Translations under genes and position numbers: made by a program
IMG/VR virus record: IMGVR_UViG_3300001476_000004
Length of the DNA: 25,677 nt
Direction: 5' to 3' (one strand)
From: a virus
Part shown: in pieces, positions 1 to 6,419 of the stretch
Layout: each line of letters opens with the position of its first letter
Numbering within the stretch: position 1 is the first letter of the stretch
The notes under the pieces: model-generated
The model's input: only the letters and a program-made list of their open reading frames with translations
Told to the model about the DNA's origin: nothing
Database searches by the model: none

Positions 1-124
1 TTAAAATGGAAAATCTAATTTCGTCACGAGACACAATTACAGAATCGTCTTTGTTAATTTTATTTTTAAGAAAAGTTGACTTTCCTGACCCTGGGCAGCC
101 CGCCATAATATATAAATCTGCCAT
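1..124 (-). CDS. P-loop polynucleotide kinase-like protein, N-terminal 41 aa only (gene continues off the left edge)
   Basis: Reverse complement of 1..124 reads MADLYIMAGCPGSGKSTFLKNKINKDDSVIVSRDEIRFSIL. The Walker-A motif GCPGSGKST matches the kinase domain of T4 polynucleotide kinase (IGCPGSGKST). The ATG overlaps the TAA of the upstream gene (TAATG at 122..126). Confidence 0.5.
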   Translation of the reverse strand, partial: MADLYIMAGCPGSGKSTFLKNKINKDDSVIVSRDEIRFSIL

Positions 125-405
125 TATATAATACCTTCTTTCTTTAATTTCCCTCTAAATATTCGATATGGTTCTTTTCTATTTCCTTCACTATCAAAAT
201 TATGATACTTCATTTCAAGTAGAAAATCTTCATAATTATAATCGCTATAAAAAGGACGAATTTCAACATGATTTCTTTCAGCCCCGCAATAAATGCAATA
301 TAACTTTTTTAAGTGTCCTGGTTCTTTACTTCGCTTATTTCGAGGAATTGGGATTCCTCTCTTTTGACAGCATGTGCAATACATTTCAGAAATTTCAGTT
401 GCCAA
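124..405 (-). CDS. Small Cys-rich zinc-ribbon-like protein (93 aa)
   Basis: Intact ORF. GGAGGA RBS at 409..414 on the minus strand. CxCC...CxxC spacing (CTCC...CIYCG). TAA stop. Confidence 0.55.
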   Translation of the reverse strand: MATEISEMYCTCCQKRGIPIPRNKRSKEPGHLKKLYCIYCGAERNHVEIRPFYSDYNYEDFLLEMKYHNFDSEGNRKEPYRIFRGKLKKEGII

Positions 406-421
406 TACATTCCTCCTTTAA

Positions 422-652
422 TTACTTTTCAATTACATTGATAATAATTTTAGGCTGACCGTCCCTATCCATACGAGTAACATAAATAGGCTCATCTGTA
501 TCTTCTGGATTTATTCTTCCAATTTTATAATCTACAACAGTCCATGGAATTTCAAAAACACATCCTTCAAAAAGAGGCTCTTTATCATCCATGCCCCAAA
601 TTATTACATCACTTAGACCATCTACATATTTTATCCAATTTTTAAGTTTCAT
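422..652 (-). CDS. Hypothetical protein (76 aa)
   Basis: Intact ORF with an AAGGAG RBS just upstream on the minus strand (rc of 660..670). TAA stop. Confidence 0.55.
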   Translation of the reverse strand: MKLKNWIKYVDGLSDVIIWGMDDKEPLFEGCVFEIPWTVVDYKIGRINPEDTDEPIYVTRMDRDGQPKIIINVIEK

Positions 653-703
653 AAATATATATCTCCTTTCTTTTTTATTATAATAATATTATAATAAAAA
701 TTT

Positions 704-739
704 ATAAAAAAAACAAGTGGAGAATACTGTTCTCCACTT
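704..739 (-). terminator. Rho-independent terminator downstream of the RNA ligase gene (minus strand)
   Basis: 10-bp inverted repeat aagtggagaa (715..724) / ttctccactt (730..739) with a 5-nt loop. An A-run at 706..713 gives a U-run on the minus-strand transcript. Confidence 0.5.
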
Positions 740-748
740 ATAAAAATA

Positions 749-3556: not shown

Positions 3557-3637
3557 TATTTATACCTCTTTTATTTTTTCCCATATTTATTTTTCTTTCT
3601 TACATATTTATATTATATCATATTTTTTTAAAAAAAT

Positions 3638-3666
3638 AAAGGAAGAGTTTTTTTAACTCTTCCTTT
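3638..3666 (-). terminator. Hairpin terminator after the MVP-like gene (minus strand)
   Basis: 12-bp perfect inverted repeat aaaggaagagtt (3638..3649) / aactcttccttt (3655..3666) with a ttttt loop. Flanked by a T/A run at 3621..3637, which gives a U-tract on the minus-strand transcript. Confidence 0.5.
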
Positions 3667-3676
3667 AAAATTTATA

Positions 3677-6169
3677 TTATAAATTTACTTTAGTAGAAAC
3701 TTTATCAAGAACTTCTTCAAGAGGAGTTCCTCTTAAAAGTTTATTAACTGTATCCGCAACAGACTCATCTTTTGCAAGCGCATAAGGTGCCATACTAGCC
3801 ATTCCCTCTTTAAGTAATTCTGCATGAGAACTTGCACTGATTGCTGCAACGAGATCGGGCTGAATGGAATTCATAATTTCTTTCACAGTAGCGGCATATG
3901 CTTCCTGTTTAGCCTTTTCAATTTCAGCAAGTTTTTTAGCATGAGCAATTTCTGCATCCTGCTTTTCTTTAATACGAGCCATTTCTGCACTCTGAATTGC
4001 TGTCAAAATACTCTGAAGATCATTCTGTGCTTGAACTTCTGCGGTTTTAGCTTCACGCTTCTTTACACGAATCATTTCTTCATTGTGCATTTCCTCTTCA
4101 GTTCTCTTCTGCTCAAGTTCAAGAGCATATAGAGCTGTTTCGTTATTTAATTCAGCTTCTTTCTTCTTTACGTCAGCGAGGGCTGTAACAACTTCCATAC
4201 GAGCCGCCGCATCAGCAAGTTCAACACTCTTCTGAATTAATTCATTCTGATGCTTTTCAAGAATCCTAGCAATATCTTTTTCAACGCCGATACCAATAAT
4301 ATCAACATCATTTACAAGCATGCCATTTGTTCTGAAAAGTCTACCAAAAGGTTTATCTACAGCTTCAGTTTCTGCATCTGTGTTAATATCAAGGACAATA
4401 TTTCTAATAATTTCGGTAGAATCTGCATAGAAATCCTTAATATTATATGTTCTAATTTCTCTCTTGATAAGAGAACGCATATTATCACACAGATATTTTG
4501 CATAATTGTTTATAGTAAACCAAGAGTCTTTATAATCTTTCAAAAAGTCTACATAATAACTCAGTTTAATCTGAACATCAGCAAAATCTGCGGTCTGAGC
4601 ATTAATAATATCAGAAACTTTATTATTTTCAGTTTTGAGGAAAGCTGTAACCTCCTCTTTATCTCCGCAAGGAACAGTAATTGCTTCTACTGTTTCGTCA
4701 TAATCAAACAAACGAGTCGCAGGTCCAATTACAACTTCTCTATCTCCAGACTTAGATACAACATTAATTGCATATCCAGTCCAAACATCTACCGCAACAA
4801 CACCTTCATATTTAGTATCAAGAGTAATTGTTCTCGGCTTAGTATAACTTACTCCACGAGAAATATTAGCATTTGCTTCAAAAATAGCAAGTGCAGATTC
4901 CTGATTAGCAGTGGAATATACATTATTAAGCGCATCTGTAACCGCAGAACCAGTAAGACCTTTCTTTGCCATTCTTTCAACAGCCTGTTCAGTAAGTCCA
5001 CTGTTATAGATTAACACTTCGCTGTTGCCAGGATACATAAGATCGCATTCCTTATTGGTTAGTTTTCTTTTGACAACAACTGCTGTGCGAGGATCAGGTA
5101 AATACATCTGCGGACCGCGCACTGTAGTAATTTCACCAGTAAGTCTATTAAGAATATATCTACCTTCACCTTCGGGGATAGCGATAGCGTGATGCATATA
5201 TTTTCCATCATACTGGATCATAGCATGTTCAGGACGAGGATAATAAATCATCTGGTCATTACCAGTAATAAATAGTTCCTCACCAATAGGATGATGAATA
5301 GTTTTACCATTCTTTTCCTCATCATATGCAGCAATTACTTTTACATAAATCCCACTAATAGGAGAAAGTTCAAGAGCACGGAAAATCAAACCACCTTTAG
5401 GAGCTGCTACAAAAGTTTCAGTAGGCTTTGGGAATACCACGGCAGGGCCATGAATATATCTCTTTTCTCCATCTTCATCTTTTAGAATTGCGTACTCAAG
5501 TCTTTCAAGAGTAACTGCATCGCGAACATATTCATTACTATTTTCAATAGGAATAACTTCAATTCCTGTTGGCGGAATATAGAAAGATACTTCTGTACCT
5601 TTAATAACAATCATCTGACCGACAAAGTATTCCTCAGGAGTTGCAGTAATTTCCTTACCTTCAGTATCTACAATAGTTGCTGTTGCAATACCTTTACGTG
5701 CGGCTTCCGCATCATAAACTCTCGCAAGGAGATACTGATTAGAGCGAAGTCTATGTCCTCTAATTACTCTTGTCATCTGTCCAGGAAACAGTGAGAAAGA
5801 AACTGGACCAGCGATATTAATCTTACGTCCAATTTCAAGATTCGGACTATTAACAGCTTTTGCGGCTTCTGGATGGGAATTATCTGTAGCTGGATTCTTT
5901 AGAACTACATACCATCCTTCAGGAGCTGAAATGAAAAGCTGTTTAGCTTTCTCAAAGTCCTGAGTTTCCTCGAATTTCTTTGTCTTAGAATTAAAGACAA
6001 CAAGAGATTCCTGTGCAGAGATTGTCATAGTAATAGGACCAGTATATGTTTTAATTGCGCCATTTGTTTTAGACTGCAAGAAACAAAATTCATTTGTAGA
6101 AAGAACTAAGTCTCGCTGTCTATTCATCTGAGACGAATTGTCCCAATTTTCATTATCATATCTTCCCAT
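3677..6169 (-). CDS. Major vault protein (MVP) homolog (830 aa)
   Basis: Repeated MVP-repeat-like units run through the N-terminal half (GQMIVIKGTEVSFYIPPTGIEVI, GEKRYIHGPAVVFPKPTETFV, GEELFITGNDQMIYYPRPEHAMIQ, compared with human GEEWLVTTVGAYLPAVFEEV and [23 protein letters not shown]). The shoulder domain aligns block by block with human MVP: QTADFADVQIKLSYYVDF ~ ETADHARLQLQLAYNWHF, IKDFYADSTEIIRNIVLD ~ FDDFHKNSARIIRTAVFG, NGMLVNDVDIIGIGVEKD ~ NGLVVSSVDVQSVEPVDQ. A long Ala/Glu/Lys-rich coiled-coil cap-helix-like C-terminus follows. AAGAGG RBS. TAA stop. No in-frame TAG. Confidence 0.7.
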   Translation of the reverse strand: MGRYDNENWDNSSQMNRQRDLVLSTNEFCFLQSKTNGAIKTYTGPITMTISAQESLVVFNSKTKKFEETQDFEKAKQLFISAPEGWYVVLKNPATDNSHPEAAKAVNSPNLEIGRKINIAGPVSFSLFPGQMTRVIRGHRLRSNQYLLARVYDAEAARKGIATATIVDTEGKEITATPEEYFVGQMIVIKGTEVSFYIPPTGIEVIPIENSNEYVRDAVTLERLEYAILKDEDGEKRYIHGPAVVFPKPTETFVAAPKGGLIFRALELSPISGIYVKVIAAYDEEKNGKTIHHPIGEELFITGNDQMIYYPRPEHAMIQYDGKYMHHAIAIPEGEGRYILNRLTGEITTVRGPQMYLPDPRTAVVVKRKLTNKECDLMYPGNSEVLIYNSGLTEQAVERMAKKGLTGSAVTDALNNVYSTANQESALAIFEANANISRGVSYTKPRTITLDTKYEGVVAVDVWTGYAINVVSKSGDREVVIGPATRLFDYDETVEAITVPCGDKEEVTAFLKTENNKVSDIINAQTADFADVQIKLSYYVDFLKDYKDSWFTINNYAKYLCDNMRSLIKREIRTYNIKDFYADSTEIIRNIVLDINTDAETEAVDKPFGRLFRTNGMLVNDVDIIGIGVEKDIARILEKHQNELIQKSVELADAAARMEVVTALADVKKKEAELNNETALYALELEQKRTEEEMHNEEMIRVKKREAKTAEVQAQNDLQSILTAIQSAEMARIKEKQDAEIAHAKKLAEIEKAKQEAYAATVKEIMNSIQPDLVAAISASSHAELLKEGMASMAPYALAKDESVADTVNKLLRGTPLEEVLDKVSTKVNL

Positions 6170-6220
6170 ATTTTTTACCTCTTTTTCTTTAATAACTTAT
6201 ATTATAATTATATTAAAAAT

Positions 6221-6249
6221 TTTATAAAAAATCAAATTTAAATTTTCAA
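6221..6249 (-). promoter_or_regulatory. Sigma-A-like promoter for the MVP-like gene (minus strand)
   Basis: On the minus strand: -35 TTGAAA (rc of 6244..6249), 17-nt spacer, -10 TATAAA (rc of 6221..6226). It lies about 50 nt upstream of the RBS of the 3677..6169 gene. Confidence 0.35.
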
Positions 6250-6419
6250 GACTTCAACCATTTATACCAAATATAAACAAAAAATGCCATTGCAATACTA
6301 ACCCAAAGCGGCCAAAGTGTCTTTTTCCAACTCCAATTAATAAGATTAAAATATTTAAGTATAATATTTGTGACCAAAATCATATCTAAATGACTAAAGT
6401 TAAAATCATTTTTATCCAT
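6246..6419 (-). CDS. Small hydrophobic or membrane protein (57 aa)
   Basis: Not in the ORF track because it is under 60 aa. Reads MDKNDFNFSHLDMILVTNIILKYFNLINWSWKKTLWPLWVSIAMAFFVYIWYKWLKS. AAGGAG RBS 8 nt upstream on the minus strand. TGA stop. It is the first gene of the leftward block. Confidence 0.4.
   Translation of the reverse strand: MDKNDFNFSHLDMILVTNIILKYFNLINWSWKKTLWPLWVSIAMAFFVYIWYKWLKS

Follow-up and report, generated by a model that had tools for sequence, protein, structure and literature searches.

TAG, most likely read as glutamate, is confined to one of two conserved gene classes in a tailed phage of gut or rumen type

We analysed a 25,677-nucleotide stretch of viral DNA (IMG/VR record IMGVR_UViG_3300001476_000004, hereafter the window) for its use of the codon TAG, which appears as sense in some of its genes and is absent from others. 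The window is identical (100%) to positions 47,868-73,544 of ENA contig ERZ28612952 scaffold_98 (128,258 bp), of which 42,066 bp in total around the window were examined. The explanation that we prefer, and to which we give a probability of roughly 0.7 as a whole, is that the source genome is a ~128-kb tailed phage of gut or rumen type which decodes TAG as an amino acid, probably glutamate, in part of its genes only, and that this decoding gates the expression of one gene class relative to another.

Reading through TAG opens two long frames on the plus strand of the window, one of 2912 codons (7135-15870) with 34 TAGs and one of 1616 codons (16229-21076) with 15; read-through of TGA or TAA gave no comparable long frames in the whole window. 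The first frame matches the tape measure family PF10145, a long conserved open reading frame (ORF) restored by stop-codon read-through, and the gene caller used on the ENA contig likewise took TAG as sense, yielding a 2907-amino-acid (aa) PhageMin_Tail tape measure protein. The ORFs of the minus strand, by comparison, are all open under the standard code, gain no length from TAG read-through and stop at TAA throughout, except for TGA at the end of 6246-6419. Minus-strand genes have no in-frame TAG in 1993 codons, including 164 Glu codons, against 61 in the 6120 codons of the plus-strand genes (1 per 100; 408 Glu codons), a difference with Fisher p = 4e-8 per codon and 5e-9 against Glu codons. 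Since the minus-strand genes do contain 57 off-frame TAG trinucleotides, the in-frame absence is frame-specific and not compositional.

A preliminary description of this DNA had reported eight leftward genes that lack in-frame TAG and stop at TAA or TGA, which holds far beyond chance, and about one TAG per 85 codons in the rightward genes, which is about right (1 per 86 for the tape measure alone). Profile matches also bear out its naming of an RNA ligase, a metallophosphoesterase, a DenV-like protein (Pyr_excise), a major vault protein (MVP)-like protein (MVP_shoulder), a Zn-ribbon protein and a small membrane protein, the membrane location of the last being a prediction. The leftward features are as follows; none of the genes contains TAG.

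1-124, minus strand: first 41 codons of a polynucleotide-kinase-type gene (AAA_33), 164 aa in the full contig.
124-405, minus strand: Zn-ribbon protein, 93 aa, stop TAA (phrog_1257, 1.4e-9).
422-652, minus strand: 76-aa protein with no assigned function, stop TAA (from ORF calls).
713-741, minus strand: terminator-like hairpin, 12 pairs followed by a T run, 3' of the RNA ligase gene (from a hairpin scan).
749-1993, minus strand: ATP-dependent RNA ligase, DRB0094-like (RNA_ligase domain with an N-terminal PHA02142 OB fold).
2070-2249, minus strand: 59-aa protein (from ORF calls and homologue comparison).
2290-3138, minus strand: calcineurin-like metallophosphoesterase (domain matches).
3131-3556, minus strand: DenV-like pyrimidine-dimer DNA glycosylase (Pyr_excise).
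3637-3667, no strand: bidirectional terminator-like hairpin of 13 pairs, dividing the leftward block into separate units (hairpin scan).
3677-6169, minus strand: MVP homologue, 830 aa, 0 TAG against 78 Glu codons (MVP_shoulder).
6246-6419, minus strand: 57-aa small protein, the earlier "small membrane protein", stop TGA (phrog_1374).

Together with the adjoining flank, this block encodes an RNA-repair module comprising an AAA_33/Pnkp kinase, Metallophos_2, Metallophos, RNA_ligase and the PHA02142 OB fold. The kinase matches bacterial Pnkp and PNK-3'Pase kinase domains at scores under the curated cut-offs, as do all RNA-repair NCBIfam matches, which places the assignment at the level of families. 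Cleaved tRNA is usually healed and sealed by this combination of a kinase, a metallophosphatase and an ATP-dependent RNA ligase. The MVP-like protein matches Pfam MVP_shoulder (PF11978) at 6e-23, and its residues 326-775 align to eukaryotic MVP chains in the PDB (phmmer, E ~3e-9), with the N-terminal third unmatched; it is kept in at least 10 relatives.

Relatives were obtained by scanning IMG/VR with the RNA ligase (80 loci at 53-86% identity, many on 120-240-kb contigs) and with the NAD-ligase (80 more loci), and most of these loci are TAG-recoded. Homologues of the minus-strand genes together hold no TAG in more than 100,000 aligned codons. Counts for individual families are given below.

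RNA ligase: 0 TAG in 32,440 codons (80 homologues).
MVP-like protein: 0 TAG in 12,747 codons.
Metallophos_2 protein: 0 TAG in 11,951 codons.
Kinase: 0 TAG in 10,261 codons.
GyrB: 0 TAG in 20,325 codons.
Zn-ribbon protein: 0 TAG in 3573 codons (42 homologues).
Tape measure: 269 TAG in 16,231 codons.
Two lysins: 39 TAG in 4,210 codons.

For clustered genes of the loci in which TAG aligns with glutamate (E-type loci, ~50 recoded phages), we expressed TAG as its share of Glu-type codons. The family shares are bimodal, at ~0-0.6% or 9-52%.

TAG-poor: RNA ligase, 0 against 854-882 Glu codons.
TAG-poor: MVP-like protein, 0 against 804-816 Glu codons.
TAG-poor: primase, 0-1%; DnaB, 0.6%.
TAG-poor: GyrA, GyrB and NAD-ligase, at most 0.5%.
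TAG-rich: lysins, 25% (40 of 40 members).
TAG-rich: GIY-YIG protein, putatively membrane-anchored, 37%.
TAG-rich: RuvC, 52%.
TAG-rich: tape measure, 19%; tail and large structural proteins, 23-24%.
TAG-rich: homing endonucleases, 15-17%; PhoH, 19%; AAA_24, 9%.

TAG is concentrated in structural and lysis genes and essentially missing from replication and early-type genes; primase and other replication genes equally rich in TAG, which would have spoken against the preliminary description, are not what the relatives contain. Across the sequences compared, the partition is conserved and follows gene family, not strand, and the data support the view that the separation of two translational gene classes is maintained by selection. 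Stop-to-stop ORFs may take in upstream TAGs that lie outside the gene: the few TAGs in GyrA were rejected as in-gene codons on being placed upstream of the real start, and homology-trimmed counts for the kinase and Metallophos_2 are probably inflated in the same way. Within the TAG-bearing E-type families, the TAG share of Glu-type codons falls from 31% over the first fifth of the gene to 15% over the final two fifths (chi-square p = 4e-32), a 5' enrichment that may be partly an artefact, because stop-to-stop ORFs and start-codon calls can include upstream TAGs. One of the most TAG-dense genes (8-17 TAG) encodes a ~310-aa GIY-YIG protein and is surrounded by TAG-free replication genes on the same strand (L115 12501-13436, L124 12495-13412, L130 12582-13526, L111 12442-13359); by eye its product has an N-terminal hydrophobic segment, a putative anchor, and a coiled-coil-like middle, followed by a C-terminal GIY-YIG domain (Pfam).

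The codon usage of the two classes in the window differs for Gln (p = 7e-14) and Leu (p = 2.5e-9) only. TAG-free RNA-repair and MVP-like genes use CAG 39 times and CAA 12 times and prefer CTT, and TAG-bearing genes use CAA 226-230 times and CAG 67-68 times and prefer TTA. The Gln bias recurs in relatives, with CAA/CAG counts of 271/614 for the RNA ligase, 49/375 for the MVP-like protein and 875/146 for the tape measure. These relatives nearly always encode tRNA-Gln(UUG) and tRNA-Leu(UAA), so the codon shift fits translation before versus after a supply of phage tRNAs. Replication genes are TAG-free yet CAA-preferring, and may form an intermediate, third translational class.

We propose that genes needed before decoding changes must suit an unmodified host in which TAG is a stop, and that selection would purge every TAG from them. 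This early-type set would include the kinase, phosphatases, RNA ligase, DenV-like glycosylase, MVP-like protein and, close by outside the window, gyrase, RNase H, DnaB and primase. A phage tRNA array including a suppressor tRNA(CUA) would then accumulate and open full translation of the TAG-bearing genes, a late-type set able to carry the codon, namely the tape measure, tail proteins, endolysins, RuvC, homing and GIY-YIG nucleases and PhoH.

Among the alternatives, the one that survives best, although we consider it unlikely, holds that TAG is avoided not for timing but for accurate or high-level translation of enzymes, or so that these genes can be expressed in settings that never produce the suppressor, for instance a carrier state or a different host. 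However, there is no general sparing of enzymes, as lysins, RuvC, nucleases and PhoH are TAG-rich, and the separate Gln and Leu codon shift points to a changed tRNA supply. The DNA-metabolism genes AAA_24, PhoH and RuvC do carry TAG, which renders early and late labels based on function imperfect, and a comparable non-lytic use has been described in the TAG-free integrases of prophages (Borges et al., bioRxiv 10.1101/2021.08.26.457843). Nevertheless, the 42 kb examined showed neither an integrase nor a repressor, and the pattern is the same as in other recoded virulent phages.

The gating model carries a second element, the identity of the inserted amino acid. Residues aligned to window TAGs in relatives, and to relatives' TAGs in window proteins (n = 610), include E 180, D 67, Q 63 and K 57, and a substitution-profile likelihood puts Glu ahead of Gln by 173 nats, or 61 nats outside the tape measure. 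An all-against-all comparison of TAG columns in six-frame ORFs gave a K/L/Q/E mix, consisting of one-mutation TAG neighbours from non-coding frames, and was replaced by a refined analysis on a greedy non-overlapping gene set. The loci then fall into two groups, 53 E-type (including this genome) and 42 Q-type, with 14 more ambiguous. At the 781 TAG sites of E-type loci the aligned residue is E in 33% and Q in 8%, and the Glu model beats the Gln model by ~1200 nats. The Q-type sister loci, an internal positive control under the same analysis, give E 5-6% and Q 27-29% at 130-174 TAG sites. Between close relatives (70-97% identity), TAG pairs with GAA 358 times, GAG 103 times and CAA 103 times in the E-type group, and with CAA 93 times, CAG 65 times and GAA 9 times in the Q-type group. 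As GAA is two mutations away from TAG, this pairing indicates amino-acid conservation and not mutational proximity.

The GH73 lysin of this genome reads LIAQTIQ-TAG-TGYG, with the TAG aligned to the Glu of FlgJ AQAALETGWG; PDB entry 3k3t has Ala in this column. We take the FlgJ residue to be catalytic and 3k3t to be the corresponding mutant. The gene lies ~1.2-1.7 kb left of the window on its minus strand (13193-13738, plus strand, in locus L001). The column holds TAG in this genome and four relatives (L073, L031, L034 and L007) and a Glu codon in eight others. Three well-covered TAG columns of this genome are purely Glu, with 12 E in GH73, 10 E at tape-measure codon 276 and 13 E at codon 390. 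TAG here most likely encodes glutamate, judging from these alignments, so an implicit code-15 (Gln) reading is probably wrong: homologues of this genome and of the related loci favour Glu at TAG positions, not the glutamine of genetic code 15. We found no report of TAG decoded as Glu in phages in the searchable literature, the coverage of which is incomplete.

Suppressor genes were located in relatives. Two E-type loci encode tRNA(CUA), L087 at 3731-3806 and L190 at 6368-6441; the two are 75% identical to each other and share U11-A24, U13.G22 and a 4-nt variable loop. They are closest to the tRNA-Glu(UUC) of their own genomes (0.64 and 0.67, versus 0.59 and 0.61 for tRNA-Gln), a similarity that weakly supports Glu. 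A GTCT/GGAC D stem was tried as a marker of tRNA-Glu and rejected once this D arm had turned up in other phages' tRNA-Gln genes; the ARAGORN register for the L087 suppressor, with a Gln-like U1-A72, was also discarded, as alignment with the L190 suppressor indicates C1-G72. The relatives' suppressors sit in tRNA arrays that adjoin a DUF2828 gene. A TAG-free DUF2828/DUF7788 protein lies directly downstream of the tRNA array in L029 (2394-3884), in L185 (1760-3286) and in L188, L190 and L191 at 10001-11533, its family being huge (7974 database proteins at E<=1e-30). Other occupants of the arrays are phage tmRNA genes (L087 4572-4852, L091 2194-2523), and L087 has at 2021-2094 an AT-rich tRNA-like gene whose UUA anticodon would pair with TAA. 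Beside the tRNA array of L190 is a sigma-70-family gene (1591-2454, regions 1.2 to 4), a candidate for transcriptional control of the temporal classes.

Under the preferred model, TAG would insert glutamate through a suppressor derived from tRNA-Glu, and, with TAG in place of the catalytic Glu of the GH73 endolysin, lysis would require the right suppressor. A Gram-positive host is suggested by the lysis genes (GH73, Amidase_2 with PG_binding_1, a Dp-1 holin, and choline-binding repeats in L191). Many bacteria of this type have no glutaminyl-tRNA synthetase (GlnRS) and use a non-discriminating glutamyl-tRNA synthetase (GluRS). Such a GluRS could charge the CUA suppressor with Glu. We infer both the suppressor of this genome and its charging enzyme; by synteny with L185, L187 and L190, the suppressor should lie 10-20 kb beyond the right end examined.

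The loci form one family by their shared RNA ligase, and its members appear to use TAG as Glu, TAG as Gln, TGA read-through or the standard code: Q-type examples are L039, L047, L048, L057, L063 and L084, a gain from TGA read-through is seen in L062 and L086, and L042-L046, L053 and L065 gain from no read-through and look standard. We lean, by a narrow margin, towards the view that one lineage in this large family of ~130-kb gut or rumen phages reassigned TAG to Glu via a tRNA-Glu-derived suppressor, with sisters using Gln, TGA read-through or the standard code, and that an active lysin requires the correct suppressor, a chemical lock on top of the translational gate.

That TAG is glutamine (genetic code 15) after all, and the Glu signal an alignment artefact of Glu-rich, AT-rich proteins, appears improbable to us. 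The published TAG-recoded phages whose code differs from the host's are all reported as Gln, six weakly covered sites favour Q, the ligase site is divided and the suppressor tRNAs offer weak evidence for Glu. However, run through one pipeline, 42 sister loci of similar composition come out as Gln and 53 loci as Glu, and the aligned Glu codons are mostly GAA. The GH73 Glu position, which we take to be catalytic, is TAG in five genomes, and the sites outside the tape measure also favour Glu.

We think it very improbable that the TAG-free block is recent cargo from standard-code donors, too young to have accumulated TAG. The genes are auxiliary in function (RNA repair, DenV, MVP-like) and their Gln usage is odd (CAG 25 and CAA 1 in the MVP-like gene, CAG 8 and CAA 2 in the RNA ligase), but the Lys, Glu and GC3 usage of the block matches the rest of the genome. 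Moreover, the same genes are present, without TAG, in at least 30 E-type relatives at 55-86% identity, so the RNA ligase and MVP-like genes are old residents, and this long-term, gene-specific absence of TAG argues against recent acquisition as well as against strand mutation bias. Core replication genes are equally TAG-free, whereas homing endonucleases, which are truly mobile, are TAG-rich. For the RNA-repair genes this explanation is largely refuted, and identity ranking suggests that they follow the phage tree. A higher GC (0.40) and more CAG in the tail-fibre gene and in some of the TAG-free genes of the plus strand would fit exchange, and the tail-fibre gene may be a recent arrival.

The preliminary description had taken the partition to be one of strands. 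On the contig, TAG-bearing and TAG-free genes are interleaved on both strands, and TAG-bearing genes on the same strand as the leftward block begin 1.2 kb past the left edge of the window, so that the clean split within the window arises from where the window ends. The flanks are listed here, the left one in order away from the window.

Left flank, leftward strand: kinase, 0 TAG.
Left flank, leftward strand: Metallophos_2, 0 TAG.
Left flank, leftward strand: Dp-1-type holin, 0 TAG.
Left flank, leftward strand: GH73 glucosaminidase, 2 TAG.
Left flank, leftward strand: Amidase_2, 2 TAG.
Left flank, leftward strand: PG_binding_1 protein, 1 TAG.
Left flank, leftward strand: RNase H, 0 TAG.
Left flank, leftward strand: 64-codon gene, 1 TAG.
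Left flank, leftward strand: GyrB, 0 TAG; GyrA, 0 TAG.
Left flank, leftward strand: NAD-ligase, 1 TAG in the first 296 codons.
Right flank: 885-codon tail-fibre gene, 0 TAG.
Right flank: 735-codon gene, 4 TAG.
Right flank, beyond the 735-codon gene: minus-strand genes with 5 and 4 TAG.

In relatives, 78 of 310 genes on the strand of the RNA ligase carry TAG, as do 51 of 64 on the opposite strand. A strand effect, in which replication- or transcription-linked mutation bias makes or tolerates TAG on one coding strand, is the least credible alternative: the split in the window coincides exactly with strand and with a change in GC-skew sign near 6.4 kb, and relatives' genes opposite the RNA ligase have 17 TAG per 1000 codons versus 3.5 on the same strand, but the TAG-bearing lysins sit between TAG-free Metallophos_2 and holin genes and RNase H and gyrase genes on one strand, the GIY-YIG gene (13-17 TAG) is placed between ligase and DnaB, and neither the 78 same-strand genes with TAG nor the off-frame TAGs of the minus-strand genes fit such a bias.

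The intergenic region and the rightward block of the window comprise the following.

6420-6637, no strand: AT-rich divergent intergenic region, with a leftward site TTGATT-17-TATAAT and extended -10 at 6509-6481.
6638-6919, plus strand: 93-aa protein, 1 TAG (read-through ORF).
7147-15870, plus strand: tail tape measure protein, 2907 aa, 34 in-frame TAGs, the first at codon 3 (PF10145).
16241-21076, plus strand: 1611-aa protein with 15 in-frame TAGs, a putative tail-block protein by adjacency to the tape measure; no family match was obtained.
21344-21372, plus strand: best sigma-70-like match in the window, TTGACT-17-TATAAT, the sole match at 11/12 (promoter scan).
21400-21884, plus strand: RuvC-like Holliday junction resolvase, TTG start at 21400, 6 TAG against 8 Glu codons.
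21882-21915, plus strand: terminator-like hairpin of 15 pairs, 3' of the RuvC-like gene (hairpin scan).
22050-25162, plus strand: six genes with no assigned function or protease-like, 0-2 TAG each, the TAG-free ones being Glu-poor.
25213-25677, plus strand: start of the tail-fibre or virion protein gene of 885 codons, with no TAG over its full length (39 Glu codons).

The TAG-free genes of the plus strand are four complete ones (6935-7105, 15927-16097, 22578-22814 ... 23765-24220) and the tail-fibre start (25213 to the end); within the window, the lack of TAG in these genes is not significant, as they have few Glu codons. The RuvC-like gene forms a compact unit (21344-21915, plus strand) of promoter match, gene and own terminator, with the highest TAG density in the window; it is likely transcribed by the host polymerase and would thus be blocked at translation. 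The 93-aa protein at 6638-6919 has an apparent paralogue on the minus strand at window-equivalent 30672-30974, ~5 kb right of the window, so that two proteins of ~95-100 aa (1 and 5 TAG) in opposite orientation flank the tail gene block; their likeness was judged by eye.

An early/late switch point at 6420-6637, as had been suggested, is not borne out: promoter-like sites occur at chance level, the region holds a plausible leftward promoter and no convincing or distinctive rightward one was found in it, and the leftward block is cut by the hairpins at 3637-3667 and 741-713. Of the preliminary description as a whole, the two sharply separated translational classes kept by selection remain, and the strand partition and the switch point fall away.

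Several further observations weigh against gene-class gating with a Glu-decoded TAG. The early and late timing of the classes is predicted from gene function, and the class boundary is not clean, since AAA_24 (9%), PhoH (19%) and phrog_6721 (11%) carry TAG and the full 885-codon tail-fibre gene has none against its 39 Glu codons (P ~0.004). Sigma-70-like sites number 44, with 38.5 +/- 6.3 expected, which is not above chance. Taken by itself, this genome gives Glu a modest lead over Gln (+16 nats); the commonest aligned residue is E at 14 of its sites, D at 6 and Q at 6, the six Q sites being poorly covered, and its single NAD-ligase TAG site is split between E 21 and Q 18. Searches of the window and of the 42 kb of scaffold_98 found no tRNA gene, the similarity margins of the relatives' suppressors are small (0.64-0.67 versus 0.59-0.61), and a Glu-like D arm, present in tRNA-Gln genes of other phages, is not diagnostic by itself.

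Megablast of the window against GenBank phages gave no nucleotide match, and tblastn with the RNA ligase against the same set returned distant relatives only, at no more than ~35% identity. An Rfam scan of the window and an IMG/VR scan with the 608-aa protein at the right end gave no matches, and no terminase gene lies within the 42 kb examined. A further search with the 608-aa protein did not recover its counterpart from this contig, and a DUF2828 search yielded relatives only. We considered phAss-1 (PMC10607447) as a relative and rejected it, an RNA ligase not being mentioned in that paper and the GenBank-phage nucleotide search being empty.

Taken alone, the gating pattern is a further example of a known arrangement, and the "translational timer" of the preliminary description is the published model of Borges et al.; the probable reading of TAG as Glu, which that description missed, is the most interesting content. 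In the searchable literature, amber reassignment in phages is described as always to Gln and is explained by GlnRS readily charging CUA suppressors. If our reading is true, a Glu lineage beside Gln relatives would show that the identity of a reassigned codon is evolvable within one phage family, and GluRS would be a second entry route for amber reassignment. Annotation pipelines apply table 15 to every TAG-recoded phage and would then misplace Gln at about one fifth of the Glu positions of virion and lysis proteins, a catalytic residue included. TAG at the catalytic Glu of the endolysin offers a simple, testable case for control of lysis by recoding.

Regarding known systems, the RNA-repair genes resemble T4 Pnk and Rnl, bacterial Pnkp and the Deinococcus DRB0094 ligase in that a kinase domain, one or more metallophosphatases and an ATP-dependent RNA ligase are encoded together. 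In contrast to the T4 and bacterial systems, the functions here are spread over separate genes, as predicted from family-level matches.

The closest parallels in coding are the phages described by Borges et al., including Agate, crAss-like and Lak phages. In several clades, structural and lysis genes occupy several alternatively coded modules, replication machinery is in standard code and homing endonucleases are preferentially recoded, as in the present family; suppressor tRNAs in large tRNA arrays are shared as well, and so are mixed codes, close relatives in that study using TGA, TAG or the standard code. Borges et al. proposed that recoding holds back late and lysis proteins until the suppressor tRNAs have been produced, so the gating idea itself is not new. 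Their ~127-kb Agate clade from cattle, pig and tortoise guts resembles our genome by size (~128 kb), apparent animal-gut source and coding pattern only. The difference lies in the amino acid: only TAG to Gln and TGA to Trp were seen by Borges et al. in phages whose code differs from that of the host, whereas here TAG aligns with Glu.

Phages using code 15 (Peters et al., Nat Commun 2022, PMC9523058; phAss-1, PMC10607447) also have TAG as sense in tape measure and virion genes and carry tRNA(CUA) genes, with no dedicated aminoacyl-tRNA synthetase found. Those phages insert Gln, according to peptides or tRNA typing, in contrast to the Glu signature that the alignments indicate here. Block-wise dual coding in crAss-like phages (Mgcod, bioRxiv 10.1101/2022.06.29.495998) similarly combines standard-code stretches with stretches in which a stop is reassigned. 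Instead of two large blocks, however, our genome has single genes and small cassettes interleaved on one strand.

Glutamate is assigned to TAA and TAG in the nuclear code of peritrich ciliates, which would share with this phage the reassignment of a stop codon to glutamate. The ciliate code differs in being eukaryotic and genome-wide and in including TAA along with TAG, without the conflict between host and parasite codes or the partition into gene classes that we describe here.

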